NCBI GenBank assembly: GCA_002633005.1
Contig: NMRA01000795.1
Location: 64,328-128,327 of the forward strand
Direction: 5' to 3'
Length of the DNA: 64,000 nucleotides
DNA from: Phoronis australis
Taxonomy: Eukaryota; Animalia; Phoronida
The position numbers and the translations under genes were made by a program. The notes under the pieces are model-generated. The model saw nothing but the letters and a program-made list of their open reading frames with translations, did not search any database and was not told the DNA's origin. Shown in pieces: positions 4,684-63,212 of the stretch. The stretch's first letter is position 1; each line of letters begins with the position of its first letter.

Positions 4684-7600
4684 ATGTCTGGGGAGCACAA
4701 AACAGTGATAAAGGGCACAGAATCAAAATACGTTAAACTCAACGTGGGTGGTTCGTTGCACTATACAACAATTGGGACATTGACGAAACATGACAACATG
4801 TTACGGGCGATGTTTAGCGGACGCATGGAAGTTCTCACGGATTCTGAAGGTGTTTAGCTTTGCTTGTGTGATGTGTTAAAGACTTGCACTGTATTAAACA
4901 TAAAGCAGCGTGCTTTCTGTGTCAAAAAATACGTAATTGATATTCAGTCCTTTTATCTCTGTAAAATTAAGTCTCATTTTGTTTCTTAGTGTAGGGCTTG
5001 GGAAGAAAAAGCTCTGCATAAAAATATTTTAAATGCAATTCTGTGGATGCGCCCTTCTTGTGCAGTTGTCTCAGGGGAGTTTCTATGAAATTTCAGGCTG
5101 GATTTTGATAGATCGTTGCGGAAAGCACTTCGGTACCATTCTCAACTTCCTTAGAGATGGTGGGGTGGTTTTACCCGAAACCAGGAGAGATTTACAGGAA
5201 CTTTTGACAGGTAAATCCACCACATGTCAGGTCTTAAAGTAATTGCCTGGTGCAGAGTTGATCAATTAAGGAGATCTATGATTTCATTGCCAATCCCATG
5301 ACTGTTTTTTGTCTCAAAAACAAATATGGGTCATAATAACCAAATGTAGAATTACTTTGCTTTAGCAAATGTTGGAAGGGTTTCAATGGGTTGACCATAC
5401 ACTTGTTTAAGTCTGAAGTTGTTCTACTTGCAAGTGGTGCTGTTTGTAAAGCCTAAACATTGCTCTGCAATTGCGCGCTGAACGAAGGGACAAACTGTTT
5501 CGGGGTATAAAATAAAATATCATTAAAGTTGTGCACTATGTTGTTCACACTTCCAATTTCTTCTTTGTCTTCACAGAGGCCAAATATTACCTAGTGCAGC
5601 CTTTGGTGGAGTCTTGTGAACAGGCGTTGAAGAAAAAGCAAGAAGAGTTAGACCCAGTCTGCAGGGTACCTCTGATCACCTCACAGAAAGAAGAGCGGCT
5701 CTTGATAGAAGGAACATTAAAGGTAGATCTCTATTCTGTTTTACATGTTGGGCAGAGCTTGGCCATTCTTTGGACACGATTAAAAACAAAAACAAAGTTG
5801 CCTGTCCAGTTTAGGAGTACTGTGAATGTATATCCTTTGGAAATTGGAGTCACAGTTCTCTCTAGTTCATCCTAGATTTGCCAATGTAGTGTTACTCAGT
5901 GGTTTGTTCAGACGATTCAGTAATTCGCTCATGCATACAAATGTTCAGTTTATCAGAACTTGTTTGAAAGTGTCTATTATGTGAACATATTTAATGGTCG
6001 CAGTTAAAAGCTTTACTATTTTGAGAGAAATTTCACCAACTGAGTGTTGTTTTTCTCTGCATAAGCCTTTTTAATAAATGCCTCTTTCCAGTTATCTCTC
6101 CCCTGTGTCAGTATGTTTTTTACAATCGCGTTTAATTCATTTATTTTCAGCCTATAGTCAAATTGAGTTGCAACAGGCACAATAACAAGTACTCATATAC
6201 AAGGTGAGTGTGAAAAGTAATTTAATGTCTGTCCATTGTCCTTAAGTGCTCTTTCCTGGATCTGACGAGGCTCTCTTCTGATTAGGTATGTTTTATTCAG
6301 GGCTTGGAATTTTCCGCGGAAACGCGGATTTCCGCTTTTTTTATAATATTTCCGCGTAAAAAAATCGTATTTGATATAAAATTTCCGCAGCAAATTCCTT
6401 TCTTACCGCGGCGTTGCAGACGACGTTGACCTCGAAAAGCGGAAGTTGCTCTTTATGTTCGGAGGAACGTAAATTGTCAACATTGCCGGGGCATCTGGGA
6501 TAGCGTGGTGTGATTTTCAATGGCGTCTCGTGTTATTGTTAAGCGCGGCGACAAATACTACCGCTCTGCAGCCAAAAATGTGTGGGTTGGGAGTAGACGG
6601 GCGAGCTAAAAGGACGCAGACGCATGCTACTGATGGTGGTAACGTTTTTTTTTTTTTTTAGTCCTCCCGATTTTTGTCGGGGAGAGGTTCACATCTAGCC
6701 TGGTTATCGGGCGATGATTTGGGCCGTAAAAGTTTCAAACTTTCCGCGTTTTTTGTCATTGGTCATTCCAAGCCCTGTACCCTGTCGTGGTGGGTTCTGA
6801 TGATGAATTCTGCTTGCGCTCAGCTGTCATGACTGGTTGTTCTGTTTTAATTTCGGTGACTACCTTATTCTGATAAATCAAGGACTTGTTCCAAGAAACT
6901 GAAAAGTTCTTTTTTACTTAAGCCTAAGATTTGTCTCGGCTTCCAAAGTTTGAATCTTCTACATCCGATAAGGGAGTCAAAATTAAGACAAAACTTGAGT
7001 CAAAGACTTAAGTCAAACTTAAGATCTCTTTCTTGAAACATTCTTGAGACAAATTTAAGTTTTGTCTTGAAATTGTCTGAAATTTAAGATTTGTCTTAGC
7101 TTAGTCAGTTTTCTTGGAACGGGCCCCTTGTCTTCATTATTTAACTCTATCAGTATTGGTAAGATACATATCTAACATCATATTTCATTTGATGGACAGT
7201 AAACAACAACTTAGTTCTGTATTTTGTCTTTTCAGTCATTCGGATGATAATCTCCTACGTAACATAGAACTCTTTGACAAGTTATCGCTGCGCTTCAACG
7301 GTCGTATTCTGTTCATCAAAGATGTTATAGGAAGCAATGAAATCTGTTGTTGGTCGTTTTACGGGCATGGACAGAAAATTGCCGAAGTCTCCTGTAATTC
7401 TATAGTTTATGGAACGGATAAGAAACATACAAAGGTGAGCTATGTTTTGGCTGCTTTTGTTCCCTCATATTATGTGTGGTTGCTCTAAGATGTGGGCATG
7501 GCTGATACAATTCGGGGGTTTTCGTCTACAGCAAAACTCAGTCAGTGGCAACTGGTGTCGTTTTTAAGGCATTGTGGGACGGTTGTCTGCTCGTAAACAT

Positions 7601-18500: not shown

Positions 18501-21364
18501 GATTGAATTCCTAACTCGGAGGTTTCAAATCAGCATCAGAATAATCAAGAAGTAGACATTAAGGCTGTAACCGATCAGTTTTTCCGGACGTCTGTAGCAC
18601 CGCAAAACTTCCGGCTTATGAAGGCACTGTGGGAGTATCACCATCTCTACTGCAAAGTAGAAACGGTGGCACTGTCTACCACCAGGGTACACAGTGACCA
18701 CCGTCTCTACTACCACCGCCAGTAGAGACGTTGGAGCTCCAATAGGTGCTTCATAAGCCGGAAACTTTTCGGCGAATTATACCTCGCACTGACTGAAACG
18801 TCAAAGTCATGTTGTTATAAATACCTTTTGCGCATAGTGGGACACCTTAGGAGGCCGTCAATGTATTCAGTTCCTTCAAAGTCGATCAAATACTCCCGTT
18901 ACCAAACTTTTGCTACGAGAAATCAGTAACCCTACACTTTCACAGTGCGCATGCCAGGGGATAAGACGTCATACAACCTGCTGCGCGCAGTGTTAAAAAT
19001 GGCGAGTTACAGATTTTGGGAACTGAACAAGGGACTGCTCAAAGAAAAGGTTCGATAATGTGAGTATTTGGTCGAGTTGGAAGGAATTAAGTACATTGAT
19101 GGCCTCCTAAAGTGTCCCTCTATGCGAAAACGTTATTTATAACAACGTGACTTTGATGTTTTAATCAGAGCGAGGCATAATTCGCCGAAAAGCTTCCTGC
19201 GTATGAAGCGCCTACAGCCTACTTCTTCTTGTTGGTTTAAGTGACCACACTCTCTCCAGAGTATTATGTCACTGTATAACAGTGAAGTCTGAAGATCAAC
19301 AAAAACGAGAACAAGTATACAGGTTTAAAAGGAAATATATTATAGTAGTGGACGTCACTTCAGAGCAGGCCTTTATGCAGCGTACATCCATTTGGACGCC
19401 CTAGCACTAATGTGGACACCCTGGCAAGGACGCCAATGTATCATTTGGATGCCCACTGTCAATAGGAACCTTTCAAGTTTGGACACACACATTGTAATGA
19501 ATACTAGGAAGCCTTTGAAGGCTCATAGTGGGGGCTTTTTTTTCAAAGCAGGAAGAAATATAAAATATACAAAGTATATACAATGTTGCTATGCTCACAC
19601 TTGGTTGATAGCATTGTAAAAGTCTTGGTCTACATTTTTTTAGTAAAAATGCTCACTACAGTAGTACCGTCAGAGGTCCTAAAGTCGTAAGTGTCCTAAA
19701 GTCGTGAACAATCTTATTTCCTCTTCTGCGCGGTCCTGCGACATTTGGTGTTGAAGTTTCTAGCGTTCGTCTGCTTACGAACATCAAACGAATACCCGGA
19801 CGTGTTCGTATTCACAATATGATAACAAACAGTGAGTGAGTGGCTAATTTTTTCAAATGTATCTTAAAAACAGCATATTTCACTAATTCACTTTTTTGTG
19901 CGTTTTTGGGATATATTTTCGAAAATATTCATCGTTTAGATTTACTCAAACACGTGCTCCAGGGGTAGCTTGAACAATGTATCAAAATGTCCCAGGGTCG
20001 ATCAAGTTTTGTAAGGCCAAAACAATAAAATACAGAGCAATAATTGATGCTGGGTTCTTAGCGTTTTACGTGTACAACCTCATTGAAAACGTCTTTGCAC
20101 ATCAAAGTTGGGTGCAAAACATATAACAATTTATTTCAATTGAAACTGAATTAATAAACAATGCAATGCAATGCATTTTTATGTCATCTAGAGTAACTGT
20201 AAGCACTGTAGTTGACTTGTGTGGTCATACTTCGTGCATTTCTGTCTAAACGAAACGTTCACGACTTTAGGGCCTCATTCAAAATGGCCGGCGATATCAG
20301 CGACTGTTTTAAAACTCTGCTTACGGATACAAACAAGGATTAAGATTGTCAAAACATGTATATTTGTGAAGGCTGATATATGTCCATGACACCACATGAG
20401 CAGTTGTAAACGGACATTGGGTAGTATGACAATCAACTGCTTATTAAGCTTATATTCACAACTTTAGGTCACCGGTGTATACAGAAGGCTGCTTTGTAAA
20501 CTTAGATGTGTAGTAAATGTCGACGTCAGTCTCGGCTGTGGCGTCTCTATGTTGTGATGTCCTTTTGTTAACAATGTTGGTCTTGGCCTGGTGCGACATC
20601 TAACGCCAGAAGAGCCCAGCCGAGGTCACCCTTCTATCACGTGACCAGTCACCCTTCAAGACCACGTGACAAGATCGTCTGGGCCTTCTGGAGTTCGCTG
20701 CCGTCCTGCACGGACATAATGTGAGTATACTCCGGACTTTTCTCTTGCACCGCGTTAATAGGCCCGAACCTGTGTGTCTGCTTAGCCAGCCGACCCACCT
20801 CTTTTTATTACAACAGATGTAAAAGCCTTGGTGTATGCATTTTTTGCAAAAAAAAATCTGTGTTTTGGGGGATGTTGCTGGGGGTGGGGGTTACGTGTGG
20901 GAATCATGGACGTCCTGGAATATTGGGAACCCCATTTTGGACATCCTATTTTCGAAATCCTGGACAAAGCCAAGGCCTGCTTCAGAGGTCGGTTAACATA
21001 GCCAGATCATTAACATGGTGGGGTGCCCCAAATGGAGGCAGCCCACTATGTTACTTCAGACAGGCAGATAGCTTGGTGAAAAAGACATCGAGAGAAGGAG
21101 CTCCACCGTCTGGCGTCTCCGTCACACTCAGTCACAGTTCAGCCTCCGCTCAGCCCAACCAGCCTGGGCCCCAGGTCACGTACGTCTAGATTGTGAAATT
21201 ATATCCAACTATCTAAACAATTAAATAACAATCAACACAAATATTGTACCAGCATGTTCGCCAGCAGCAGCAGAAGGCCCGTGAGCCATGCCTCGTCCTG
21301 CTACTACGTCTCTCGAGGCAATTGTGAGGCGGCGGAGAGGACCCGAAAGTAATCTGGACGCCAT
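12560..21364 (-). CDS. COX6A: Cytochrome c oxidase subunit 6A, mitochondrial; 3 coding exons (exon 2 present in two copies)
   Basis: Exon 1 21364-21250 ([38 protein letters not shown], presequence-like). Exon 2 18437-18292 or 16069-15924 ([26 protein letters not shown]...[16 protein letters not shown]). Exon 3 12649-12560 ([29 protein letters not shown]), the COX6A signature. Confidence 0.95.
15924..16069 (-). CDS. COX6A: COX6A exon 2, copy A (146 nt, GVLLCY variant)
   Basis: Intact AG acceptor and GTAAAT donor; lies within duplicated block 14457-16632. Confidence 0.8.
18292..18437 (-). CDS. COX6A: COX6A exon 2, copy B (146 nt, GVALCY variant)
   Basis: Intact AG acceptor and GTGATT donor; lies within duplicated block 16634-19004. 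Confidence 0.8.
18743..19214. mobile_element. Foldback/palindromic non-autonomous DNA element with long imperfect inverted arms
   Basis: TAGGTGCTTCATA...TATGAAGCGCCTA, with arms pairing over ~170 bp or more. A half-copy lies at ~16371-16632 and a homologous copy at ~47350-47765 in METTL9 intron 1. Confidence 0.65.
19669..20478. mobile_element. Degenerate DNA-transposon relic with CCTAAAGTCGTGAA inverted subrepeats
   Basis: CCTAAAGTCGT twice at the left end, and TTCACGACTTTAGG / TTCACAACTTTAGG at ~20258 and ~20455. Confidence 0.4.
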
Positions 21365-21718
21365 TTTCTTTCTAAAGTTCCCGGATACGGAGTTATAAAC
21401 GGATACGAGATACTTTTTATCAAAATGCAGTTTCGTGTTATTTGAATTTTCTTCATTCATAACAATTTTGTGCTGAAAATGTACAGATATTTTTATGATG
21501 ATAATTATTTTAATCGACTTGGAAATTGGTTCATTCTGGTGTAGAATGTATAAATCTTAAATACGAAGCTGTTTCTCATATAACGTCTTTACCAAAACTT
21601 GACCTACTTCTTTCACCTTCATTGCTGCAAGACAGAGATCGAGAGAAGATTTTGACTTTTGACTTGGCAATGGCAGATTTTAAGGTCGCCGTGACTGTGT
21701 CACATTTCACTTAATCAA
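21365..21718. promoter_or_regulatory. Probable bidirectional promoter / 5' UTRs shared by COX6A and the clathrin terminal-domain gene
   Basis: Divergent start codons lie only ~350 bp apart. Transcription start sites cannot be determined from sequence. Confidence 0.55.
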
Positions 21719-24700
21719 ATGGCTTTTCATATAACCGAAGCAAATAATGATCTGGTTCACATCAGTGAGTTAATACAGGTAAACCTGATGATTATAGTTT
21801 TGTAGCTTTGAGTTGTGGCAGTTTTGTCAACCCATCTTAGCTAGACCTGGGCCCGGTCTCTAATCTTTGTACTCGAAACGAACTCGAAACTATTTTTGGC
21901 AATTTCTCTGCTCCTTTTGTGCGAACGTAAGATATTCAGACTGTGCTCGAATACATTATAGTTTATGCATAGGAGTTTCTAGTTCAAGTTTGCCCTTGAA
22001 GACCCTTATTTTCGTGCTACAAACTCGAGTAAAAACTCGAAATTTCAAGTTCAAACTCGAACTTATTGCTTTAATATTGGGTTTACAAACTGTGAACGAA
22101 AGGCAATAAATTATCTACGTAAGTTATTGTGTACTCGAGCATAGAATAACAGACACTTATCTTGAGTTCGCCCAAAAGTAGAGTAGAAAATGCCAAACCT
22201 AATTTCGAGTTCCATTTCGAGTAAAAAGATTGGAGACCGGGCCCTGGTCGGTCGGTCAGTGTCAGTGAGTCGCAACTTGTGGCAGTGCCAACTTACATCC
22301 ATTGAATCATTGATTCCTTGGTATGGCAAATGGATTATTGGGTGACAAAATGACTGGGCAGTGGAGTGCTCTGTGATGTTCAAACACTTTACTAGGAAAT
22401 GGTAATAGTGTGCCTGAACTTGGAATCCTGCTTAGTTAAAGATAATCTCGGAAGTGAGTCACTGAGTGTTGCTTGAACTTGGAATTGAATATTCTTTTGA
22501 GCAAAAAGATAAAATTTTTGTTCAGTGAAAAGAATTTTTGTAATTATTGGCCTCGCGACATTTTTCCTTTACCGTAACTAATGTGTCGCTTAACCGGAGN
22601 CTTCTTTCACCTTCATTGCTGCAAGACAGAGATATGAGAGAAGATTTTGACTTTTGACTTGGCAATGGCAGATTTTAAGGTCGCCGTGACTGTGTCACAT
22701 TTCACTTAATCAAATGGCTTTTCATATAACCGAAGCAAATAATGATCTGGTTCACATCAGTGAGTTAATACAGGTAAACCTGATGCTTATAGTTTTGTAG
22801 CTTTGAGTTGTGGCAGTTTTGTCAACCCAATTTTCCCATCTTAGCTAGACCTGGTCGGTCGGTCAGTGTCAGTGAGTCGCAACTTGTGGCAGTGCCAACT
22901 TGCATCCATTGAATCATTGATGGCTTCTGATTCCTTGGTATGGCAAATGGATTGTTGGGTGACAAAATGACTGGGCAGTGGAGTGCTCTGTGATGTTCAA
23001 ACACTTTACTAGGAAATGGTAATAGTGTGCCTGAACTTGGAATCCTGCTTAGTTAAAGATAATCTCGGAAGTGAGTCACTGAGTGTTGCTTGAACTTGGA
23101 ATTGAATATTCTTTTGAGCAAAAAGATAAAATTTTTGTTCAGTGAAAAGAATTTTTGTAATTATTGGCCTCGCGACATTTTTCCTTTACCGTAACTAATG
23201 TGTCGCTTAACCGGAGGAATATGTGAATGGCTAAATCGATTATTGTTGGTGAAACTGATCGCCTATAGTATAGTTGAAGAAGTTGGTTAAAATTAACATT
23301 ATTTTATTCAAATGTAACTTGATTTAGTGCAGTGAAAATTTTTATGAACATGAACGCAATTATTTGAGTGAACTTGTCAAGTTGCTTGCGTATTTCAAGT
23401 TCACACAACACTTTTTTCCGTTTAATCTTGAGATTAAGCAGGATTCCAAGTTCATGTACAGCAGTAATCGGGCAATTTTGGAAATGTTAGTAATCTGTTC
23501 ACATTAGACAGGTGACCCTAATCATTAATTGCATTTTTAACATCCTTCCTTCCAATCATCACTCTTCACAGTCACTCGGCATTGTTTTCAAACAATTGAG
23601 TTCCAAGTTGCAACAGTAGTAGATGTTCTTTCGGTGAATCATATGAGCCTCTGTTAGCTACTTGCTAACGGGCAATTGCCTATTAGCCGAATGGTTAGCA
23701 CGCTCGCCGGTTTCATCGGGGTCACTGGTTTAAAAGCCATGTTGGGTAATCTTGGCTATTACTACATAACTTACATCTGCCAAGAAATTTTTTTCTGATC
23801 ATGAATAGTAAATCTTGTTCAATAATGACAAAAGGCTTTTTATTACAATTGCTCGACTGATTCACGACTTTGTCCGTAATTTGTCTCAGTGACTAATTCC
23901 AATGTGCCATTTTAAAGCAATTTACTCGAAACATCTGCAACTGTCAAAGGTGCGTCTTGAAGAGATCGAGTAATTAACATCAATGATGTTGCGTTGTTTT
24001 TAATCAATTTAGTACTCATGTCTGCGACTGCACATCTTTCTGTAGGTGTTTGAATTGCATTAATAATGTGAAAGAAATGGACAAAAATTGATTTTGTTTA
24101 GTATATACTGCCCATACAACGGGTTGTAGTCGTTCGATGTCTGCAGTCTTGATACATGTTAATTAATTAAAACTGATTGCGTAAATAAGGATTATTCTTT
24201 GTATTTTTAAATGAGTTTTTACTGGAGACGTTTTTACTGCCTGCGGTCTTACCTAGTTAGTCCCTGATTTTTGGAATTTTTTAAGATTTGATCACAAGCC
24301 TTGTACTCAAAGTTGCTTTTTCCCCCACTTAGTAGACAAAAAAGAAAAAAAATTTATACATTTATTGAAAATGAGAACATCACAAAAAGACAAGAACGCC
24401 AAATACACGCATACCCAGCACCTTGACTACTAAGAAAAACAGTTTCAAAGTTACACCATCTTTTTGTATACAATTCTGAATTCAAATCCTTTCGATCACT
24501 ATACTTTTCACTTATATCATATTTTTGATAAAGTTAATAAATCTACTTAGAAGTAATCTTTTCGATACGAACTTTTAGGTATAAATAAACTGTTTACCCA
24601 ATAATAAAACAATGTTTTTAAAATTTCCCTTTTTATCAAAAAAGCCAAAAATAACATTGCTGCAGGAGAGAGTGCTGACACACTGAGGATTTGCTTTGTT

Positions 24701-27700
24701 TAAAATTTGGTTATTATCTTTTGTCCAAAATGAATTTATTGTTTCACATTCCCAAAATAAGTGTTTCAAAGTCTCTTTCGATTGTCCAAAGAAGGAATAA
24801 GAGTCGTCATCCGTAACTGTCACAAAGTTGGTCTCATGATGTTCCGTATTGTAGCAGGATCTTATTTCTCCTACCAACTCCAGTCACAGGCAATGCGTGC
24901 GTGCATCATTTTCAAATTCGCAATTTTAGGGTTGGCTATCCTCAATAAACTTTGAAACGTTTCATTGAGTTTCTGGTGGTCTCAATATTGTTGTTGGTTA
25001 GGAAAATAGCTAGTTTTGTTGTGGTGAAGAACATTTTGAGACTGATTTTATGAGAGTAAAAGGTCCTAATTCAAATTTCGGCTTTAACCAGCTTAACTGG
25101 CTGCTTTAAGGATCTGTAGATTTTCATGAAATTTATCATCAGTAATTGAGGTCCTTGATGTGCTCGCGAATAATTATTCCACTCAGCTATGAACAATAAA
25201 ATACTAACTGGATGACTTTATTCTTCTGACAGAGTAAAAAGAATGTGTGGCTTTTGATTTACTAGATGGCAATAGTAAAATGTTCACGGTTTGGAATTTT
25301 CCTCGTTTTTGGTTTCAATTTCCTCTTGGTTTCACTTTGATCTTATTTGATTTCCAGTTTCCTATTTTTCCACCTCTTTTTATCATTACTTTGCTTTATT
25401 TATGCGAAACGTTTGTTTCACTTGAATTTTACAATACAACACAAGCTTATTTATTTGTAGAACGATGCAATAACATCACGGGGAAAGTTGTCCTCCTTTT
25501 TTGTCACTGGTCATTCCAAGCCCTGAATGTTCTTACCTAACAGAAACATACACGCATTCAAGTTTTCAGCAGATACACCAACACAGCTACAACTATTTAC
25601 CTGATAACGTTTTGTCATAAATAAGTAAATTATGAAACTCGGCTAACAAGAATCGTTATGGGCATTGCCATCAGAATAAGTTGGCCTGCAATGGATGATT
25701 TTATGCTTGCGTCAAAGTAAATTATGATTGGAAGAACTAGTAGCACTCTCGTAGACTTTGTTTGGGTTGTAAGGAAGTTGTTAGTATGTTGTATTTCACT
25801 TTCTCACGTCATGAATTGCTTTCTCTGTCTTCAGTTACAGGATGTGGGAATTCCATTAGACCAGGTCACCTGGTGTCGTGTTACGCTTACCTCCGACACA
25901 TGGATATGTGTTCGACACAACCCTGACGACAAGCCTCAGAAGAATGGTGGCAAACATAAACACCGATGCCTTGTAAGTTTGCCTATAGTTTCCATCCACC
26001 TGTTTGTGCCTGTGCGTGTGTAAAACCAAGTCACAATGCTTCCTACAGTATTTTTCCTTTTAAAATAGGGGAATGTTTCGTGACATGTGACTTAGGACTG
26101 AAGACAGAAATTTCGTCTCGCGTTCCTACTTCACAATTTTTGAAAAGACGATTAGCCAAGTAATTATGCCTCTGCATCTATCAAGTTCCTTTATGGATTT
26201 TTATTAGATTTGGCTAATAGATTTCTATTAAAGAGTCGATGGCACGTTCCATTTTCGGTTGGATTCATCATATTCTGCGTCCCTATTGGACATCTTTATT
26301 CTTTTCACAACTGTGTTTGGCGTCCGTCTCTCTAGCTGCTGAAGCATTTGAAGGATTATTATTGAAACTTACAGTGGAGAAGAGTACACCTGACATTGAA
26401 TTTGATACGATGAGACCGACTACTGTGGCGTCCCCAATTGGCAATTTAGGTTTTCTTTCCTTATGGCTCTATATCCATCAAGGAGATGACAGTTATTTTG
26501 TTTCAGACATATTTCACTTATGCTCTGCCCACTAGTTACTTGTTATATGATATTAGATGGTACTTAGAAACACCTCTAGAAACATACCACTTGCGATGCA
26601 GCCGTGAGCACATTTCAACGCTTTGCGTTTCTTTTGTTCCATGCTCAGTGGCTTATTGCATTGGCTGCAGATATTTCAAGTTTTCTTTTCTTGACAACAG
26701 CTATCTGGTGGAAGTTAGATGAACAGTAAAGTAAACTGTTCACATTTTAAATGAAATTTTTTTTTCCTCCATATTGCACACTAAATTGAAGAACTTTTCT
26801 TCACAAACGGAGTTTTCACCAAACAATTCCATGCTAGGGTGTCTTTTTTGCCAAACTGTCTGTGATATGATCGCAAATTCCAGAACATCCCTTCAGTCCT
26901 ATTCTATTTTGATGACTGGCTTGTGGGGGGGTGTGCCAAGATATTAATAGCCACATACTGAAATACCACAGCACCCCCTGATTCTCCAAAAATTACCCAT
27001 GATGCTAGGTGCCTGTATAGAAAAAATTGTCCAGACTTTCATCATTCTAGTATAAGTGAAGTTTAACTGCAGCATCGCATGTAGTGAGTTGTAATATAGA
27101 CGATAAGATTTGTGGGCCGTAATTTGTTGTAGGTTTCTTGTTGCCTCGCTCAAAACGTTTCCTAGCCTAATCTTAGAACTAAATGAGAAGCCAGTGTGAC
27201 CCTCAGTGGGATAATTGCTCGCTTTCTCTACAAAAGGCTGTGGGTTCAAGTCCCATTATGGCACACTGTTAGACCCTTGAGTCAAGTCTCTAGCTCCTGA
27301 GCTTGGGTTTTAACATTATATATTTTATTTTTTAGCCTTTCTAAAGCTTTGTCAATCATATAATGCATTTTTGTTCAAAAAGGTGAAGTCAAATTCAGGA
27401 TTTCATCATCATTTTAAACTCTCCAGCTACTTTTTTACTTTGTTTGGCCTTAAATTGTGACCAGTGTGCTCTGCCTTGATATAATTTATCGTATATTGAC
27501 ATTGGTTCTAATGTTATAAACCCGAGTACAATGACTCACTGATAAAAGTTGATGTTTGTTCCTTGATTGGATTGTAATTGACATGTACATCCTGTTGATG
27601 GTGACTGGAACATGTGCGATTTGTGTTATTTAAATGTCTGGATGTATTACTTAGCTCTACGTAGGATTCGATCCTAGGTTAAACACTACTTTAAGTATTT

Positions 27701-30700
27701 GTTGATTAGTGCAACAGACAGACTTTTAATGTTTTGACTAAGCTTTTACCCTTAAGGTCACATTCTGGTATTTGTAAATAAACAAGTGTAACTGAACAAT
27801 ATAACTGTGTTATTCAGTGAAAATCTGTTGAAACTAAAACTTGCAATCAGACGTGTTTAATCTATGAGATATTGTCGGGTATTTAGCCAAGTCTATAAAC
27901 CTTGAGATTTTTAGAGGGTTAAAACTCGGTAATATGTATTTTCTAAAAGTAGAAGGCCTGGATACTTCTGTAGCAAAATAACATACAGCGTATCAATAAC
28001 ATGGCCAAATTTTGTTCAATAGTTAAATTTTCATTATGAAATCTCAAAAACGCTATTACAGTTTCGTAATTTATCAGATTGTTTTCGTTTGATGGAACTT
28101 TTTTTAAAAATCATAAAAGTGTACTATTTTGATAGCCCCTGATGCAATCGTGGAAAATTGTAAAAGCAATTCCTAATAGTATTTCGGAGAACAATCCATA
28201 AGGTATGGTGTCTGAAAGTTTCATATGAATCCAATCTGCCGTTTCTGAGATATGTTGTTTGAAAGTTTCCCAAATTTGACCATATTTCAATGGGCTGTAA
28301 GAAAAGCAAGACTGCTTTATGCAAAATTATGCAAGACATGAGTGTTTCACAAGTAAGTTTGGGACTGTACTTGTGCATACGATCAAAATAGCTGCCACCT
28401 AAATAATTGGTCGACAAGGCTGTAATGTTGGGATGTAGTAAAAGTCACCATTTCCGTTCAGTGAGTGCTGATTTCACTTCGCAAGGGCCTTGCGTTTATG
28501 TAACATGTCCTTGCTACTACGATTTGCATTCAGCATCGTTGTTTTGCGAAACACTTGATCATTGGGTCATCTTGTTTTTAGGTGACTATACTGAACCCAT
28601 ACAGGAACAGTCTTCCCAATGACAGTTGGCATGCTGTGGCAGACTCAGCCATGATGAACTCTCATCAGCCAATCATTGCCTTGAAAGGTTAGTAGCCCCA
28701 TTATGGTCTATCCTATGATATTTGGTATTTTAGCAACTACAGTAAATACTGCCATTGGTGAACTTTGATTAGCCAATTGAAATGTTAGTGGCCTCATTTT
28801 GAGCACAGACTGTGGATTGTGCTCAGCATTCATGCGTGTAACAAATCAGTGGCTCCCACAATTTTCTTTTTAATTCTCAACAATAGCTTGGACGTTTTGG
28901 TGACATTAACATTTTTGTTTGTGTGGCTTTGAGATGTGGTATTTTTTGGTCGCTGTATTTGAGGACTCTCCATGTATAAACATTTTGAATTTCAGCCGGA
29001 TCTCGTTTTCAAGTGTTTAATCTTGAATCCAGGGTGCTACTTCATCAGTATAGATTTCAGGAGGTCATTCATTTCTGGACATGGATCAGTTCAGACGTCA
29101 TCGCCATAGTTACGGAAACAGCTGTCTATCACTGGTGCTTATTTAAAGGTAATAATTACACGTTAATTAGGCACCTCATTGCCCATTTCTATAATTGCTC
29201 CAGCAAATGTTCAGTGTCATCACCAACTCAATATGTCTGCCACTATTTTGTATGTAATCCATCGTGATCAAAGAGAAGCATTTCTTCTTGTCTGCTTCAG
29301 GGTTAATGTGAGAATAAACAGACACTGTCTCCTGGTTTCACTGCTATGCCTGCTTGTATCGCTTAGACTCCACAAAATTATTTGTTAAGGTTATGGAGAG
29401 CCTTATCGACAAGTTGACGTATTTAGCCAAATGTCTACAAAACTTTAGATGTCGACTCCATAGAAGTGTGAATTTTCTGATAGACAGTAGAAAGCTTGTG
29501 GAGTTTCATTTCTTACTTTATACCAATCTGCCCTCTATTGGGTGGGTCGCATATCCAAATCTTAAATGAGTGAAAAAGAAAATTACATTGATCCTAGCAA
29601 AACAACAGTATCAGTTAAAATGATCAAATTTCATTTGATATAAATGTTCGAGATGAAGTCTCAAAAACACTGTTGTACTAAATTGTTTTTCAGTTTTCAT
29701 TTCATGCAGCATTTGAGATTTTTCATATAAATCATTAAACTGCTATTTTTGATAGCCTCAGAATGGAGCGTTTTCAAAGCAATCCCCGACAGCGTTTTGG
29801 AAAACGTAGCTTAAATCATAACATCTGAAAGTTTTATATGAATCTGATGTGCCATTTTTGAGCTATGACATTCCGAAATTATCCAATTTTGGACGCTTTC
29901 TAGGGTCCTCCGTCACCTTAACACCACTGTTGTTGAAAATTTATCTGGTGCATAGAGGGTGGTTGGTGATTAAGGCTGAACACATGGATAGAAAATATCG
30001 GTAAAATGATACCAATAGTGCAGTTTTTTTCGTATCTGTTCCAGACAAATTAAGCTACAGGAAATGTATTTAAAAACTCAGACACTGAGCGCTATTTAGC
30101 CACATTACTACGGAACATCTAGATCCACTCAATGTTTATGTGTTGAAATTGCTCTCTAATTGAAATCGTTCCTTGACATTTACAGAGTGTGGTATTTTTG
30201 TTTTGAAATACAAAAATACCCTCAGACACTTATTGTATTGGCTATGCCTGGATACGTGTGATTGAAGAGGCGTGTTGAAAACATTGCACGTCTTTGTAGT
30301 TAACGTTGATTATCCCCCATCATCTCGCTGTTCATTGATTACACTTGAGGTGCCCACAATGATCATTACTATAGTCATGAATTGCGTTCTGCAAAAGTTC
30401 ATCATACCTCTATAGTGGCATGATTTGTATACTAGTCTGTTTTGTAGACAATTCCTATTAATTGTATACTCAACATGTGGGCGCTTTTGTAACGTTACAC
30501 ATCCTGATTGCTTCACTGTCTAGGTGAACATCAAAGGTATTTTACACCCTGTTCTCGCCAAAGTGAATGTAACTGTTAAAACCAATTTGAATGTTATAAC
30601 TCTTAGTCAGTACCGTTTTTTTAAAAATGTAACTGTAGCGCGGTAATAACTCTAATGAGGGTGTTTTAGAAAGAGGTTTTAACAGTATGTTGTAGCTCAA

Positions 30701-33700
30701 TGTGAACATAGCAGTTGGAAAAGTTATAACTCAGTAGGTGGCGCTTTTGTCAAATCTCAGAAGTAATGGTGCACTGAACCACTTACTGAGCAAGCACCAA
30801 ATGGCAAGATTGTCTACAGCACAAATTGGCTGACCTAGAACTGCCAAACAACATGTTGTGGAAATCAACGACATTTTGTGAGTCTGCTCAAAAATAGCTC
30901 GGCAAAAGGACAATTTATGAGAAAGGGAAGCAAGAAAATTACAAAAACAGACTTGGTAGCTTGGTATTACTTTTGATGTACAATATTATATTTGATGTCA
31001 TGCTTTTTGGTATGAAAATGGCACATCCGGTTTGACTGGAGATAATTTGATCAGATGTAAGATAATTTGTTAGTGTTGGCTAGAACATGTGAATTAGGGT
31101 TGCAAAAGTTAGAACTGTCAGTGTGAAGGTTAACTGTTACATAACAGTTACAGCTGTTGAAAGAGTTACAACCTGGACTTCTCAGTTCTTGTATCACGTC
31201 CAACGGTTTGCCTTAAAAGTCGACCGAAATTTTCAAAGGCCTAGTTATTGTCTATGCCTTCTTCAGTGTAGGTAGTGCTATATGAAGTACTACGTCATAA
31301 ACACAGGAAAGTTTGTCACCTTCTTCATCCCAGTTCGTTGTACACTCATTTTTTTCTGATTTCTACAGTCAGTGTTATTTTCTTTTCCTACTATATTGGA
31401 GCTGTGATGCCTCCTACATTTGAGAGATGTCCAGGAATTTTGGTTCTCGACTTACAGAACATAGGAAAGAGGTGCATGAGGTCATAGACCGAGTGTTTGC
31501 AGGATCGGAAAGAAAAGCCTCTTACTGTAATTAATAAGTCTGCAATTACAGATCATGTTATTGACTGTGACAACTAATAAGATTTTTACGGCTTTTGTAA
31601 AATCCCTGCAAGGCTCTAGCTGTAATGAAACTCCAAATTGTTTATATCGGAGGAGAATACTAGTAGTTACCATGGCAATCACAAGCACATGCACCACTGT
31701 GGTTTCAGTTTGATTAACTGCTGTTTTGGAAGGGGACTTTAGCCGTTAAGGAGTCGTGAAAATTGGTTTATGAGCTGAACAGGTCATGATATTTACCAAG
31801 TTCCTTGATGGATGTACATGAAATTTGACAAATAAATTACTGTCATGGAGACAATACTTGCCCCGTTTCAGATGGATTTGACCTACGCTAAGCCCATTTG
31901 GGCTTTTTTATTATATTTGCATCTGTTCTTCATTACCTGCCTCCCAAACTGCTTGAGAAATCTTGATGAAAGGTGGAAGGTGTGTTCTTATATTGGCCAC
32001 GCTTTGTGCTCCCTACAATAAACTTAATACTGACGCTGTATTAAGTTTATTAGTATTGTTCCATCTAATGAGAATGTTTTAACAATGACCATTCCTTGTA
32101 TCTACTGTCACTACCACTTTTATTGCTATTGGATGTTATGGTTATTATTACACGATGTTTCATCTCCATACTTGATCTTCTTCAGAGGACTCTATGCCCG
32201 ATCTCATGTTCAAAAGGCATCATAGACTGGTGTACTACGAAATAGTCCAGTACAAGACAGACAAGTCGTTCCGTTGGTTTGCTCTCACCGGCCTACTGCC
32301 TGATGTAAGTCAGTTGCCTTTGTTTTGTCTCTGATGCGTGTATTTGTTGCCTGGGTCAGCCTTCTGTCCATCCAACCCTGCTGTTCTTGTAGTTTAGGTG
32401 CTAAGTTTACGTAAAGTATGTTAATGTTGTAGGGATAGTTCAGAGAAACTTGGATGGCTGTAAAATTCGGACAAGCCTAAATAAACGTCAAATATATTAA
32501 CAATCAAGATGTCTTACCACTAAATGAAAAGATTATTCACTTCTTTGAACAACAGTAGGAATTTATTCATCACCTCACTTGAATTACAACAAAGTTTCAA
32601 CACATATGAGGCATGTTCAGCACCTTATGTCGCTCTGCCGTCTGTTTCGCGTGGTGATTTCGAAAGTCTGCGGTAGGTACACTGACTTTTCCAAGTTTTA
32701 TTTAGGTCACTTGGTCACTTGTCATGTAAATGAACTTGAATTTACTTGATGCATAATTCATCACTATTTGCAGTTTTATGTGTTAACTCCAATAGAAAAA
32801 CTTACAAAAAGCATGATTTTATCAAAAAACGGGTGTCCGAATTTCCCTCCAATTTTTTGTATGCTGCGGGGAAATTCGGACACCCGTGTTTTTAGGCTAC
32901 TAGATGCTTTTGTTGACGTTTTCTTAGAGAGATTTTCGTAATCACATGATGACCTCCTGTGTTAAGAGGTCAATCCAAAACTTAATTTGTCAACAACAAT
33001 GGCACTGTTTACCACGTGTGCTGCACACTAATTGGTAAGGGCAGACGTAATTCTACGTTGTTTATGTGGCCAGTACATGATGACTTCTGAAATTTTATTA
33101 TTCGTCTGATGATAAGACTACTAAATAATACCTAAAATCATTTTTTGAAATCATAAAGTACTGTTATGTGTTTTGTCCGAGTTTTACCTATTCAGAATTT
33201 GCTGGTCCGAATTTCCCCGACACTCCGTCCGACTTTCCCCACCTGCGTCCGAATTTCCCCAATTTTGACCAATGTTATTATTCTTAAAATTCGAAGGCAT
33301 TGAAACTGAACTAGTAACGGAGAATCTCATTGGTTGCTTTCTCAAAAGATTTGCGGATATCTCATTACTCGTCTAATGTTATTAGCTGACACATAAACCT
33401 TCAGTAGTAGGTAAGCAAGTCAAGCTAGGTGAATTTACCCGAACTTCCCCTATTCATGCTGTCGTAATGCAAAAGATCATTTTTGTAAGATTAGGACTAA
33501 CTGGCATAGTCAGAAGTAATCAACAGGGGGAGACAAATGCGAAATAGTTGGCGATGGGGGGTTGAGATGGGTGGCAATCTGGGGGCACTTTTAAATGAAC
33601 TGGGGTACCATAGGCAAAACTGAACTACGAATTACGTAAGTTTTGATTGAGGGGACTTTTTAGCGAGAATGCTAGACATGTCTTTTGTTTAAGGAATATT

Positions 33701-36270
33701 GGAGTTGGATATATGTTTTGATTACTATTGACAGGATGACTGTATTCAAGGAGTGACTCAGCTCTTCTCTGTAGACTACAACATCACGCAGTGTATTGAA
33801 GCGCATACCGTCTGTTTTGCCGAGTATCACTTCGAGAGCAACAAATTCGCATCCACGTTATTGGTGGCTGCAGTGCGCCATGAATCTCAAGTTTTTGGAA
33901 AGGTAATAATTCCTAGAATTGTTATGGATGTTGTGTGTGTCAATCTTTCTTAATTTTAAATGTGACCAATTGAAGGCAGTATTGGATAATGATGATACAG
34001 TATTCTCCACAACAGAAAATTCAAACTCTACTGAAGTTTTGTAATTACTGTATGCGTTCGAAAGTTCATTTCCAGACAGTGGAGAGATTGTATGTTAAGT
34101 CTTGGAATAAATGCTTTGAATTGGTACCAAAATCCATAGCGTACTAATTTGCCTATGAAATGGCTAATTTCTCAATACTTTAAACGCGTTGCCCAGGTTT
34201 TCAAACTGGGTGTAAGCAAGCCAAATTCGCCATGACAAAATTCAAACTCGACGCAGTGACTAGTCAAAACAGATTGTGGAGAACACTGAATTTAGTTAAT
34301 CTCCACAAGGCTGTTGCTTGGCTTATTTATTGGAGATGCAATATTTCCGTCAGTGGGTCTGTTTAAAACGGTAGAGTCTTGATTGAAGCCGTAAAATAGA
34401 ATCCTATATCTATGACAAAGAATTTAGTCTGAAATGTATAATGTTACCAGTTAATGACTCAATATGGCTGACAGGTGAATTGTTATCATTTTCTCATATA
34501 AGTGATACACTACCAAATTAATGTTTTTACCATTTTCAAGTTTTTTTTTGAGTTTAGTACCACAACTCAAAATTTTGAAAATTTCTAAGCACTTGCAACA
34601 ATGTAAGAAAACCTTGGAAAATGCGCAATTATTTTTCTCCAAAATTGCAACATTAGTGACGTTATACCATTTGGAATAAGAAATCAAACGTTTAGTAAAC
34701 CCCTTAATAAATAGTGCTATAAGAACCCTTGCAAAGCATTTTGGATGTTCCTGAATAGTCCGTTGGAATCTTGGCATAACTATTCTAGGTTCATACTGTG
34801 GAACTGGGGCCTTATGTGGAGGGCAACTTGGCCCTCACCAGTCACTACGACACGATTACGTTCAAAGACGACACAGAAAAATATGACTTTCCAGTGTCAC
34901 TGCAGGTTCGTGTCTCAATTCATATTTATTGGATAGATTCATGCTCTCGTAATTGAATAAGTTTTATTTAGAAGAATATCTTCAGGTTATTTTCTAACAA
35001 TTAAAAAAGTGATTTTCTTCAAATTGCTGAGTGATTTTACCCTATAATGAAGGTTGTGTCAGAACCCTGACCATTTATTAGATTAAGGCATGATTCAGAA
35101 CTGACCTCTGTTTGTGAACAACGCTGGTAACCTGTTCATTTATTAATTAGAAATTAGCTAGGCAAGTGAAAATTGTTTTTGCCTGTCGTACGCACAAAAA
35201 TGTATCATATATTTGCCTAGTATTGGAGTCCCGAGTTTATTGGAGACGCGCAGTTTATTGTTAAAATCAGCATGCCTGATCCTGCGGCTTCTATGAGGGA
35301 TCGATGTCTGTTGGAAACTAAGTTTCTATTGGGATTTGACGGTAACTTTGACAGAGTTAGACAGTCTTGTGTTCCATTCCAGGTCAGTGTTCACTATGGC
35401 CTTGTTTATGTGATAACCAAATATGGGCAACTGTATGTGTGTGACTTAGAAACCAGCGCGTGCCTGTTTACCGAACCAATCTCTCCAGGTGTTGTATTCG
35501 CCGCCACACTCGACACATCCAATCAGGGTTTAATCAGTGTCAACAGGTTTGGCCAGGTAAACACAGTTGCTTCATTTTGTATTGTTTTGGCGTTCTTGCC
35601 ACAGTTATTTCTTCTTCATATAATGGGTAGAGTTTCGGAGTGTAATGTAATTGGCTCCTGCTTAGTTTTCATGAAATTTTAAGGAAACTGCGTAGTTTCT
35701 CTTATGATTCTAGCATAAGTTTGATGGAATAAGATATCTTTGATTTTGTCTTATTCAAAGTGGTGGTCTTAGTTGGAGTGATCCAATCAGACTATTACCG
35801 AGTTCTGTATGGTTTTGACCACTTGTTTATTTTTAGTAGGCCATAGTCATTTAAAGAGGTCCCAGAACCAGTTAGATGCTCGTTATTCTGTGGTTCTCAA
35901 ATCTAGTCCCGTATGAGTGACTATTACCTTATTGTGCGCTTGTGTGTATCTGACAATTGAAAAATCAACTGCGATTACTGTATCTTTATGTTATTCTCAG
36001 TATTTTTGGTAGAAACCTCAGCACATAAGGCTTGAGCGGCCATCGTATGATCTACCATGTAAACTGTATGATGTTCGCTTCTGTTTCATTTTTATCATGA
36101 ATACTGGGAATGTCTATATATTTCAGGTTCTTTCAATTGCTTTGAAGTCTTCAAAATTGGTGGCGTACATACGAGAAGAATTGAAGAAGACCCGAGAAGC
36201 AGAAAGGCTTGAGACAATTTTACGAAGGGATGGAGTTTGCATTGAGACAAATCACCTGATTGACTTGTGA
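21719..36270 (+). CDS. Clathrin heavy chain terminal-domain-only protein (7-bladed beta-propeller plus short linker, 392 aa); 9 coding exons
   Basis: Exons 21719-21778 (duplicate at 22714-22773), 25835-25972, 28582-28687, 28996-29148, 32186-32304, 33735-33902, 34789-34905, 35383-35556, 36127-36270 give 1179 nt of open frame with GT-AG introns. Peptides are collinear with CHC residues ~1-350: [110 protein letters not shown]. Stop codon follows NHLIDL. Confidence 0.9.
21850..22243. mobile_element. PIF/Harbinger-like MITE, 394 bp, CTG target-site duplication
   Basis: TIRs GGCCCGGTCTCTAATCTTTGTACTCGAAA ... TTTCGAGTAAAAAGATTGGAGACCGGGCC. The empty site TAGACCTGGTCGG is visible in the duplicate copy at ~22846-22858. 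Confidence 0.8.
22714..22773 (+). CDS. Second copy of exon 1 of the clathrin terminal-domain gene (probable haplotype duplicate)
   Basis: Identical MAFHITEANNDLVHISELIQ plus GTAAAC donor inside duplicated block 22601-23216, after the N at 22600. Confidence 0.7.
24340..24880 (-). mobile_element. Non-LTR retrotransposon 3' relic (zf-RVT-like region, L1/Tx1-type)
   Basis: Translation ETLKHLFWECETINSFW...SNVIFGF...IVLLLGKQFIY resembles the Cys/His region downstream of LINE RT; it is disrupted by stops. Confidence 0.6.
25285..25525. mobile_element. MITE of the same family, 6-bp TSD AATGTT
   Basis: AATGTT|CACGGTTTGGAAT...ATTCCAAGCCCTG|AATGTT. Confidence 0.7.
27198..27315 (+). mobile_element. tRNA-derived SINE-like relic
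   Basis: B-box-like GGGTTCAAGTCC followed by GGCACA.TG.TAGACCCTTGA.TCA...CTC.AGCTCC, which is also seen at ~53992-54110. Confidence 0.45.
29389..29917. mobile_element. Kolobok-like non-autonomous DNA transposon (TTAA TSD, GG...CC termini)
   Basis: TTAA|GGTTATGGAGAGCCT ... AGGGTCCTCCGTCACC|TTAA. Interior motifs (CTGAAAGTTT.ATATGAATC) are shared with the ~27750-28400 relic. Confidence 0.55.
32431..33451. mobile_element. Degenerate TA-flanked DNA transposon relic with GTCCGAATTTCCCC subrepeats
   Basis: Imperfect termini AGGGATAGTTC... / ...GAACTTCCCCT. Several direct and inverted copies of GTCCGA(A/C)TTTCCC occur between 32465 and 33260. Confidence 0.4.
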
Positions 36271-36496
36271 CGAAATTAGGCCATGGCGTAATTCGTAGAA
36301 ATGATGGAAAGCTGTGATTACGGTTACGCACGTATTAAGCCTATTTCGAAAATCTACAAGAATGGTGTCCTATCCGAAGTGCTGGAAGTATTTTCAATTG
36401 TTATGCTGTTGGTTTATTGTCATGATCAGTTGTATGTTAGCTTTAAAATGAATTAATCAATAACAGAATGACTTCATAGGTGGCGCCGTTACATAG

Positions 36497-37139
36497 TAGA
36501 GGATAGAGTAGTTACCTATCGGCCACCTGTTTATGTTTGCATACCTAGTTTTCAAGCCCATCCTGGGCCCTTCGTCGGAGTCACCAGTGGGTGGTCCTTA
36601 GAGAAGGCTGTTACTTGCAAGAAGGCGCGGGTAAATAGCTGGTAATTCATATTCACCGTCTCTGTTCAATTTTGGTTTATTGCTCATGACTTCAACTGCT
36701 TCTCTGATTTTATGATACCAATATTGATTTTCTCCTGATAGTATTTTGACTATGTTTTGCAACTGTTGTGTGATGTGTCCGTACGGTGTTCTCCTACGGC
36801 TGTAGTGTTGCCTGATGATATGTTGGAGTGTTCTTTTAGTCTGGCACCAAGATTCCGAGCAGTTTCACCAACATATTTGGCAGAACAATCAGGGCATTCA
36901 ATCATGTATACCACCCCGCATTTCTTGTTGTCGTCTGACTTGTCTTTCGCATGGACCAAGGCACTCCTTAGGGTGTTGAATGAATTGTGTTAGGTTTCTC
37001 TGAAGATGTTAGACAGTTTTTCCAAAAGACGGTGAATGCACGGAAGGGCCACATTTATTCTATTAAAAAAGGGTCTCAGCTTCTTAGCTAGATCCACAAA
37101 CACAAACAGATTGCCGATAGGTAACTACTCTATCCCCTA
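36497..37139 (-). mobile_element. Penelope-like retroelement fragment (GIY-YIG endonuclease) enclosed by inverted repeats
   Basis: Minus-strand translation GVVYMIECPDCSAKYVGETARNLGARLKEH...AVGEH...KIREAVE...PKLNRDG is typical of the PLE GIY-YIG domain. Flanks carry a 26/27-identical inverted repeat TAG(A/G)GGATAGAGTAGTTACCTATCGGC. Confidence 0.8.
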
Positions 37140-39768
37140 AATTAATTAATAGTTCATAACAGAGGTTCTGTCTAACACGCAGGTTACTGGTTTACAGCCT
37201 TACCAACATCAGAACTTTAATGACAATAATATCTTGATTTTACTCAGCGTGGATATCGATGGTAATCCTCAGATAGCAACAATTACACATTGCAGTTTCT
37301 CATTTAGCACCTTTAGTTTTTGCAATTTCATTTGTTTTTCCCATACTGTTACTTGTTTTCATCTTATTCTGTTTGTGAATGATAAAAAGCAATGTCTTTC
37401 AATTGACATGTTCTGATTTGTTACTGTCATGGTAGATGTCGCACAAGATCCTGTACCTGTATTATTGCCAGGTGAGAACATCTTCAGATTCAATTATTCT
37501 GTCCATGGCTGGTGATGCCTGTACAAATGAGGAATCTGTCCCGTAGTTACTAAGGAAGTGTGCTGGAGTCGCTAGTAACACGTCACATATGGTTTTATCT
37601 TGCTCCTTTTCTTTATATACTCAGTTTAGAAATGATCTCTGGACTCACGAAGAAAAGACAATTTGTTATTTATTCATTCCAAGCTTGGTCTGAGACAAAT
37701 AAGAACTTTAAAGCCATAAAATCCCTCCCAACTTGGTCTCTTCTATTGTTCCTTACTTGGATAAGAAGTGGTTTCTACGATTCCACAAAACGAAACACCG
37801 TGAGGAGGCATCTTGTACAGCCTGGTCTTCAGCAATAACCAGACCAAGACTGGTTTGAATAAATACAAAGAAACTTTTTTTTTCAAAGCCATGAAATCGC
37901 TTCCCATTAGACAAAGCAAAAATTTGTGGTCAGTTTGGTAACGGTAAGTGGTAAAAGTTAAAGGTTGGTTTTTGAGATAGAAGGCAGGTTTATGGGTGCT
38001 TCAATTTCTTTTCGGCTTCTGGGGACGGCTGGAATGTTTGGTGTGTACTATGCGCGCAATTTATTGGTTGATGATTAAGTCACTAAATGGCATTGTTTTG
38101 TATGTAATCCAATACTTAAGCATTGTTGCCTAATGAATTATTTTGCACAATTGACCACTGTCTGTTATAAGCATGTCTAATAAGCAACTGTGTTGTCAGT
38201 TTTGGCAATACGATTTGCTATTAATTTCCACTGGTCTCGATATTCACAATTTTGACAGGACATTCAACATGTATTCTGTTGGTGACTTTGTGCTGTTTTT
38301 GCCTGTGGAAAGACCAAGAGTAAGCAGTGGTCTTTTGATGGTTTATTATCGCATGCTACCGTGGTACGTTTCTGTTTTTCAAAGGTTTGTGAAGAAATAC
38401 TACTTCGTACAGATTTTGGGTTGACACGTTGTCGCTGACTTATGAGGTTGCATTTCTGATGGTATTGTCATATGATGGGCTGCATCTAGTTACTGCAGAA
38501 AAATATCTGCTCGGCATATACCTTGAAGATGATGTTGCTGTCTTGTAAGGCATTTAATGTGCACCAAAGTAATAAAATTAATAGACTTGCTGTTTGCAAT
38601 ATCATAAATAGGTGATAAGTTCAGTCTTGATGACAAGGTATGCCAGCCAAAACAGTCAAGACCAGTAGGACTCCACGTTATTAAGTACGGTAAAATTTCC
38701 TTAAATTTAAAGAAACAATGGCCAAAACAGTGTTTTGATTTTTCAAACGCTCACAGTATTGTCAAAAATGTTCAAAATTTCATCTGTTGACGACAGCCGT
38801 ACTATATGAAATTCAAATAATAAGTAAAATTGTCTTGCTTACTCTTCTTGAAATTTTGGATAAAATAGCTGTTTTGCCATATTGTTTTATAATTTAAAGA
38901 CATTTTACTATACTTCGAATTTACATCTTGTCAGTAATGCCTTTGGAAATGTGCAGTCCATAGAACGGACTTCGTCAAGTGCACTGCATTAAATTTTTGC
39001 AGGATTGCAAATGCATATAGTGTCTATTTTCTGGGTTTTTTCTGAATAGATCTCACTCAAATAAAGTTAAATATAATCATTAATACTTAATTTTTCGTTT
39101 CATCAATAACAATAAAAACCCAGTACACATTGTGCGTACTAAAATACTTTTAAGCAATAACAGTGTCTCGTGTTACATTGCCCAAGTGTCAGTAGTAGAG
39201 AAGCTAAGTCGAATACTTTAACTTGGATCAACTTCAAGGTAGTCATGGTAACGTAGGACCTCCTCAATAAGTCTGCGTGTTTAACCAAGTTAACTGAACA
39301 AGATTTTAACTAGTCGGTAAAAGTATATTTTTTCAGACAGTAGAAAGCCTGTTCAGAAAATCAGTTATCTTAATTGCAAATCTTATTAATTGGGTCATAT
39401 CTTTCTAGTATAATTTAGTGGTAAAAAACATTATAGTAAAACAACAGTATCATAACATGACCGTGGACCTTGAATATATATACATATATATCTATCAAAA
39501 TGCACAGACCTGTTGATAAAGTCCTGTACAACCTTGAATTAGAATGGGTTACACTAAATCGCCCAGAATTCCCCTGGCAGCCATATTGCTTCGGTAGCTA
39601 AAACTAAATGGTTATGAGAAGTAACAGTTCTGGTCCGAAGCAATAACAAAGGAAATTATTCTCAAGATTAGAAATTAATTTCGTAATGTTTTAAAGACTG
39701 GGGTTAAATCAAAAAGTTGCTTTGGTTTATTGCACCTTTGAGACTTGTGAACACGATGGTTACTCGAA

Positions 39769-47895
<8,127 letters not shown>

Positions 47896-54430: not shown

Positions 54431-63212
<8,782 letters not shown>

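Follow-up and report, generated by a model that had tools for sequence, protein, structure and literature searches.

The window, as we call the whole 64,000-nucleotide stretch of Phoronis australis DNA analysed here, holds a short gene for a clathrin-like protein (mini-clathrin) that ends in what looks like a clathrin box. Read directly from the sequence, positions 36241-36270 are ATT GAG ACA AAT CAC CTG ATT GAC TTG TGA, which gives IETNHLIDL*. The free LIDL-COOH matches the clathrin-box sequence pattern, L-phi-x-phi-[DE] or its variant with a terminal carboxylate, the consensus being that given in PMC5182127 and the terminal LIDL form that of PMC11543927. A sequence-only reading of this DNA had proposed that a single protein carries both the receptor, a clathrin terminal domain, and its ligand. 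Is the tail a clathrin box, or is it read by something else, and what is the protein that bears it?

The mini-clathrin gene lies on the + strand and has nine exons joined at GT-AG, with an open coding sequence of 1179 nt (392 aa). The coding part of exon 1 (22714..22773, aa 1-20) shows a putative start ATG, an open frame and a GT donor, and its end agrees with the N-terminal motif of the short-clathrin family described below. It is followed by exon 2 (25835..25972, aa 21-66), exon 3 (28582..28687, aa 67-102), exon 4 (28996..29148, aa 102-153), exon 5 (32186..32304, aa 153-192), exon 6 (33735..33902, aa 193-248), exon 7 (34789..34905, aa 249-287), exon 8 (35383..35556, aa 288-345) and the coding part of exon 9 (36127..36270, aa 346-392). 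At least six of the eight predicted junctions were present in three stranded RNA-seq runs labelled as this species, in + strand orientation and with 8-51 reads each. The joint of exons 2 and 3 (25972>28582) was found in 15/10/34 reads, that of exons 4 and 5 in 12/11/36, exons 5 and 6 in 9/9/28, exons 6 and 7 in 20/14/27, exons 7 and 8 in 10/8/36 and exons 8 and 9 in 15/11/51. The exon 1-2 and exon 3-4 junctions were absent from those listed, and the start ATG would lie in exon 1. Exon 1 is also flanked by a near-identical 360-bp direct duplication (22243-22599 and 22850-23216, with an N at 22600), which is likely an assembly overlap and thus makes the 5' end of the gene less certain.

Exon 9 encodes the last propeller strand, a helix pair (predicted from the model of a Lingula relative), an 18-residue tail and the stop. 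RNA reads spanned the stop codon at a depth of 10-35 in 3/3 raw runs. Within 35300-36700, the sole joint was that of exon 8 to exon 9, the depth over intron 8 was zero and no loose read ends left the coding part of exon 9. RNA depth continued for ~2.5 kb past the stop as a long 3' UTR (36271..38800, + strand, end approximate; same-strand depth to ~38.6-38.8 kb), and AATAAA occurs around its end at 38571, 39060 and 39111. Alternative splicing into further clathrin exons is excluded, as reads run across the stop, no splice leaves exon 9 and a methyltransferase gene occupies the opposite strand at 40.7 kb. All six coding variants in the raw reads were synonymous (P about 0.002 for transitions), while the two contig-only coding variants were one synonymous change and one Q303K. 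No variants were listed in 36202-36278, the stretch around the C-terminal LIDL (L389-L392, 36256..36267, + strand), in the 3 raw runs. A pseudogene or an assembly fragment is excluded by the open coding sequence, the spliced RNA and the 6/6 synonymous raw-read variants.

Antisense within the 3' UTR lies a GIY-YIG endonuclease fragment (36753-36989, - strand, E 8e-7), presumably from a Penelope-like element. Further along, a DREV/METTL9-type methyltransferase gene is found on the opposite strand at 40.7 kb (40719-41069, DREV E 1e-21), and a tandem array of 8.1 copies of a 54-bp unit, 98% alike (42734-43169), adjoins an apparent methyltransferase exon. An AAA + peptidase M41 protease is encoded at 55264-59644 (- strand). 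The frames at 21224-21556 (- strand) and 5516-5872 (+ strand), which had no Pfam match, we take to be COX6A-like and ARPC4-like, respectively.

The clathrin likeness of the gene shows in exon 8, which aligns to clathrin heavy chain residues 268-323 (18 PDB sequences at E<=1, best E 1e-7). A word search with exon 8 scored 0/11 candidates, and single exons gave a clathrin match in Pfam in 0/8 cases. Searched against solved structures, exon 9 returned two matches at E<=10, neither of them clathrin, and the tail is thus not detectably clathrin-derived. The predicted fold of the Lingula relative is a propeller plus two helices (pLDDT 88.9; residues 381-385 of its tail have pLDDT <50), and this model superposes on clathrin terminal-domain structures with TM 0.87-0.88 and an rmsd of 1.7 A to 5M5R. 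Another relative, P0170, aligns with clathrin residues 6-351 (E 2e-75). Matches to PF13838 or PF00637 were found in 2/2 canonical rows and in 0/8 short relatives. In the canonical P0183, Clathrin-link lies at 341-364 and Clathrin-H-link at 366-429; the short members end where Clathrin-link ends, before Clathrin-H-link, and either domain was matched in 0/8 of them. The stop at 36268-36270 likewise leaves the window protein without the linker, the heavy-chain repeats and the trimerisation domain (about 1680 aa). The window gene is therefore an expressed clathrin paralogue reduced to the terminal-domain propeller and two helices. On these points the sequence-only reading was borne out: the protein does end in IETNHLIDL, closing exon 9 with RNA reads across the stop, the mini-clathrin gene is real, and its tail has no clathrin counterpart among solved structures.

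Mini-clathrin belongs to a family. When exon 8 was searched against 1.84 billion representatives, 260 matches were obtained at E<=0.001, and at least 43 of the best 150 of these fitted a profile of short paralogues better than a canonical profile, a descriptive count because the former profile was built partly from the same matches. Two profile searches brought in more members, with 17 and 30 matches, some of them canonical. The named members, mostly 340-460 aa long, come from gastropods, bivalves, annelids (Ridgeia, Owenia), the brachiopod Lingula, the nemertean Tubulanus, Priapulus, horseshoe crabs, scorpions, mites, myriapods, hemichordates and the starfish Asterias, and bear automatic pipeline names only. 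Over the propeller, the window protein is 39-53% identical to most full-length short members, the closest relative found being ~52% identical, and 32-34% identical to the best canonical chains. It ends right after the first helix pair, as do the other short members. Five features are shared among the short proteins, namely F27W (25/30), I170L (33/33), V233L (33/33) and the loss of R64 and of K98, and the window protein carries all five.

In one tree the short proteins, including that of the window, split from the canonical ones (27 v 3 rows) with support 100/100, and in a second tree (24 v 11 rows) with an SH-aLRT of 100; both trees are unrooted, with a canonical side lacking a named full-length bilaterian chain. 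Deuterostome, arthropod and mollusc short members cluster by phylum, and in the 24 v 11 tree the window row is closest to Owenia by path, without support. The split together with the grouping by phylum fits one duplication before the protostome-deuterostome split, which these sequences would suggest as the origin of the family. Searches of the literature outside subscription journals brought up no paper on such a propeller-only clathrin family. In our view this family is a more interesting find than the LIDL tail.

Several sequences lie at its margins. The Owenia protein P0051 has a propeller followed by 700 low-complexity residues ending in IVWL, an extension that may be real or a fused gene model. 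A divergent, longer clathrin of Trichoplax (P0156/P0029), which sits on a long branch and has Cys in place of R64 and K98, groups with canonical chains and is possibly a separate duplicate. Chordates may also have the family: the top ESM Atlas cluster for P0180, of 324 aa and mostly Chordata, is named 'clathrin heavy chain 2-like', with PF01394 on 37%. CLHC1, a protein without the propeller, is named for the clathrin heavy chain linker domain, and the short proteins stop where Clathrin-H-link begins; a clathrin duplicate might thus have been split, with each of the two representing one half.

The receptor side of the proposed pairing was assessed at the adaptor-binding pockets. Mammalian numbering was transferred through the alignment of P0170 with 1C9I, the segment 50-70 being realigned without gaps, and a check of the R64 column found Arg in 8/10 canonical rows. 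Site residues were taken from PMC5182127 and PMC11543927, those at I66, I80, L82, F27 and I170 only in part. Over 33 short proteins, the clathrin box retained R64 in 0, K98 in 0, Q89 in 11 and F91 in 17, the W box retained Q152 in 10/33, and the Royle box retained F9 in 0/30. In the arrestin box, W164 was kept in 33, Q192 in 31, I194 in 28 and H229 in 26 of the 33, and R188 in none. According to PMC11543927, three of the boxes each rely on an anchoring glutamine, and among these three only the arrestin-box anchor is conserved family-wide. The retention of W164 and L183 may reflect the needs of the fold rather than those of binding.

The window protein follows this pattern. Its clathrin box keeps V50, I80, L82, Q89, F91 and a basic residue at 96, and its arrestin box keeps W164, L183, S185, Q192, I194 and H229, while its pocket substitutions are R64W, I66A, T87R, K98L, R188Y, Q152E and F9I. 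In its own numbering, W82 (exon 3) occupies the R64 position; Q107, F109, R114 and L116 (exon 4) the positions of Q89, F91, K96 and K98; E171 and W183 (exon 5) those of W-box Q152 and of W164; and L202, Q211 and I213 (exon 6) those of arrestin-box L183, Q192 and I194. The clathrin box of the window protein is altered, though not obviously dead.

We then compared the tails of 41 relatives whose sequence runs on beyond the last helix, leaving out Strigamia, two early-stopping short isoforms, three partial proteins and single-exon fragments. A strict clathrin box (L[LI][DEN][LF]) stood at the C-terminus in 0/41 and a loose one in 1/41 (Lingula, LIRL). The expectation that orthologues would keep a terminal clathrin motif thus failed, among relatives of which the closest is only ~52% identical. 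PDZ ligands carry Ser/Thr at -2 in class I and a hydrophobic residue at -2 in class II. A class I PDZ-type end ([ST]-x-hydrophobic) was found in 13/41 relatives, as VTRL/ITRL/VTHL in a mite clade, QTRL in a scorpion, DTTV in a hemichordate and ISTL in Haliotis, and a hydrophobic-x-hydrophobic end in 3/41. When the rows other than the window and Owenia were sorted manually into 18 lineages, with patterns picked after seeing the data, the strict box occurred in 0/18, the loose box in 1/18 (P 0.13), class I PDZ-type ends in 4/18 against 0.77 expected (P 0.006), and class I or II ends in 6/18 (P 0.03), or 5/18 if P0178 represents its lineage. No PDZ-type end was seen in 12/18 lineages.

The terminal motif persists even though the linker before it ranges from ~6 to 30 residues, the pattern one would expect if a partner recognises the free carboxylate. 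One or two changes separate LIDL from Lingula LIRL, from scorpion QTRL and from mite-clade VTRL/ITRL/VTHL. The mite-clade proteins P0026, P0021, P0046, P0162, P0070, P0038, P0041, P0045 and P0079 have an acidic run and then VTRL/ITRL/VTHL, and this tail is the best conserved in the family although the propeller is 31-37% identical to that of the window. By family composition, the chance per protein is 2.4e-4 for a strict end and 7.6e-3 for a loose end; these are not test p-values, as the case was chosen for its motif, and the bias of the family towards hydrophobic ends raises the real chance.

The same four residues are known in both roles. Yeast Ent1/Ent2 LIDL-COOH peptides bind the terminal domain with KD about 138 and 177 uM and at three boxes, flanking Asp raising the affinity (PMC11543927); on this the sequence-only reading was correct. 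What it overlooked is LIDL-COOH as a PDZ ligand and the PDZ-type lean of the relatives' tails. According to PMC13346677, the C-terminal LIDL of AAK1 binds the PDLIM5 PDZ domain (Kd about 94 uM), with its last Leu and the preceding Asp making the contact in a crystal structure, an AAK1 C-terminal peptide enriches both clathrin and PDZ proteins, and the motif is dispensable for transferrin-receptor uptake and matters for migration. PDB entry 9F8T, by its title, pairs the clathrin terminal domain with the AAK1L C-terminus. Sequence alone thus cannot separate a clathrin box from a PDZ ligand here. The window LIDL occurs once, and its flanks are poor in acidic residues (His at -1, a single Glu at -4). 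L392 is the last residue, with a free carboxylate and a stop supported by RNA, and Ile, not Ser/Thr, stands at -2; the end is of class II or of the Asp-Leu type seen in the PDLIM5 ligands LIDL and ESDL. The other tails in the family point to PDZ domains. Overlapping LIDL, E385-T-N-H-L-I390 (36244-36261) fits what we take to be the acidic dileucine pattern [DE]xxxL[LI]; C383 lies just upstream, and many relatives have a Cys soon after the last helix.

Tentatively, we favour the reading that mini-clathrin is a propeller that binds adaptors without polymerising, and that its terminal docking motif varies between lineages and is likely of PDZ type, weak clathrin binding being a possible side activity. 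The LIDL end would then be a general docking tag, likely read mainly by a PDZ domain. The relatives' PDZ-type ends, the AAK1 LIDL precedent, the kept arrestin box and the 6/6 synonymous variants speak for this reading, and Ile at -2, the exact strict box with its low compositional chance and the 12/18 lineages without a PDZ-type end speak against it. Another possibility, which we rate as somewhat unlikely, is a lineage-specific clathrin box acting in trans, whereby the tail docks on canonical terminal domains and coats gain a further propeller with changed specificity. That an exact strict motif ends a clathrin-derived protein (2.4e-4 by composition), that Ent1/Ent2 and AAK1 peptides engage clathrin, and that Lingula LIRL satisfies the loose motif would all suit such a box; its absence from the relatives (strict 0/41, loose 1/41, and 1/18 lineages at P 0.13), the single copy with poor acidic flanks and the dispensability of the AAK1 motif for uptake argue against it.

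It is less probable still that the functional protein stops at the helix pair while the last 15-18 residues drift, LIDL being a chance product. In many members (gastropods, Priapulus, Asterias, horseshoe crabs, Tubulanus) the C-terminus lies 5-6 residues past the last helix, so no tail is needed, and although the last 30-45 coding bases carry no variant, this is no significant shortfall at the rate of the adjacent UTR (P 0.06-0.26). The low chance of a strict motif and the family excess of PDZ-type ends weigh against drift. Least probable, and in our opinion very doubtful, is that the tail binds its own propeller, in cis as autoinhibition or head to tail in chains. The window does retain part of the clathrin-box and arrestin-box residues, and in canonical clathrin peptides of this kind are ligands of both boxes (PMC5182127). 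The seven pocket substitutions listed above count against self-binding. It is further weakened by Chamberlinius and Asterias, which share the W64/Q89/F91 pocket and yet have no such tail, so that pocket and tail are not linked. Complex prediction of the millipede protein P0180 (1-368) with the last 30 residues of the window protein scored 0.00 in both runs, performed without an alignment and with a tool unproven on peptides, and is not counted for or against any of these readings. Receptor and ligand in one protein are not a design of the family, whose receptor side is remodelled throughout; the combination could hold at most in this lineage.

Under the favoured reading of a docked, adaptor-binding propeller, mini-clathrin, having no legs or trimerisation domain, would be unable to build a lattice. 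It would bind leucine-rich adaptor motifs chiefly at the arrestin box, as the family keeps the anchor glutamine there. The free LIDL-COOH would anchor the protein to a PDZ scaffold, with a PDLIM/Zasp-like protein as the first candidate, and the xTRL/xTTV ends of relatives would do likewise. In vitro, the LIDL peptide would probably show weak binding to canonical clathrin too, like that of AAK1, and this would not be its conserved job.

A bolder interpretation, which we consider unlikely, is that Bilateria inherited a third, propeller-only clathrin whose LIDL tail, here, plugs into canonical clathrin as well as PDZ scaffolds, so that coats gain a propeller for arrestin-box ligands. If true, a clathrin fragment would have turned into a clathrin accessory protein. 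In laboratory work, free terminal domain serves as a competitor for adaptors; a natural free propeller, kept from a time before protostomes and deuterostomes parted, would be a regulator or scaffold of clathrin traffic that has gone unrecognised, and such proteins are now masked by 'clathrin heavy chain-like' labels. Since the arrestin-box anchor is kept and the other sites are remodelled, the family also offers a natural experiment on the importance of each of the four adaptor sites outside the lattice. The LIDL tail is of lesser weight, being lineage-limited and ambiguous between clathrin and PDZ partners.

Among known systems, mini-clathrin resembles the terminal domain of the clathrin heavy chain (CHC17 1-363; 1C9I, 5M5R; PF01394), with which it shares the seven-bladed propeller, the first helix pair and the arrestin-box anchor. 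It differs from CHC17 in having no Clathrin-H-link, heavy-chain repeats or trimerisation region and in its remodelled clathrin, W and Royle boxes. CHC22 (CLTCL1) is likewise a second clathrin, a duplicate with a separate role (PMC6548504), but is full-length and found in vertebrates, whereas mini-clathrin is propeller-only and its family spans protostomes and deuterostomes. The short proteins named 'clathrin heavy chain-like' or '2-like' (XP_013398554 of Lingula, XP_059169269 of Physella, XP_067126185 of Centruroides and XP_077996151 of Glandiceps) belong to the same family, with the same end point and on the same side of the 100-support branch, yet 0/41 relatives end in LIDL. The long isoform of AAK1 has the same last four residues and a free carboxylate, but is a kinase whose motif is conserved across jawed vertebrates, whereas the nearest mini-clathrin relatives are only ~52% identical. 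Yeast Ent1/Ent2 also end in a LIDL clathrin box; these epsins are membrane-binding adaptors with long disordered regions, whereas the motif of mini-clathrin sits 14 residues past a folded propeller.
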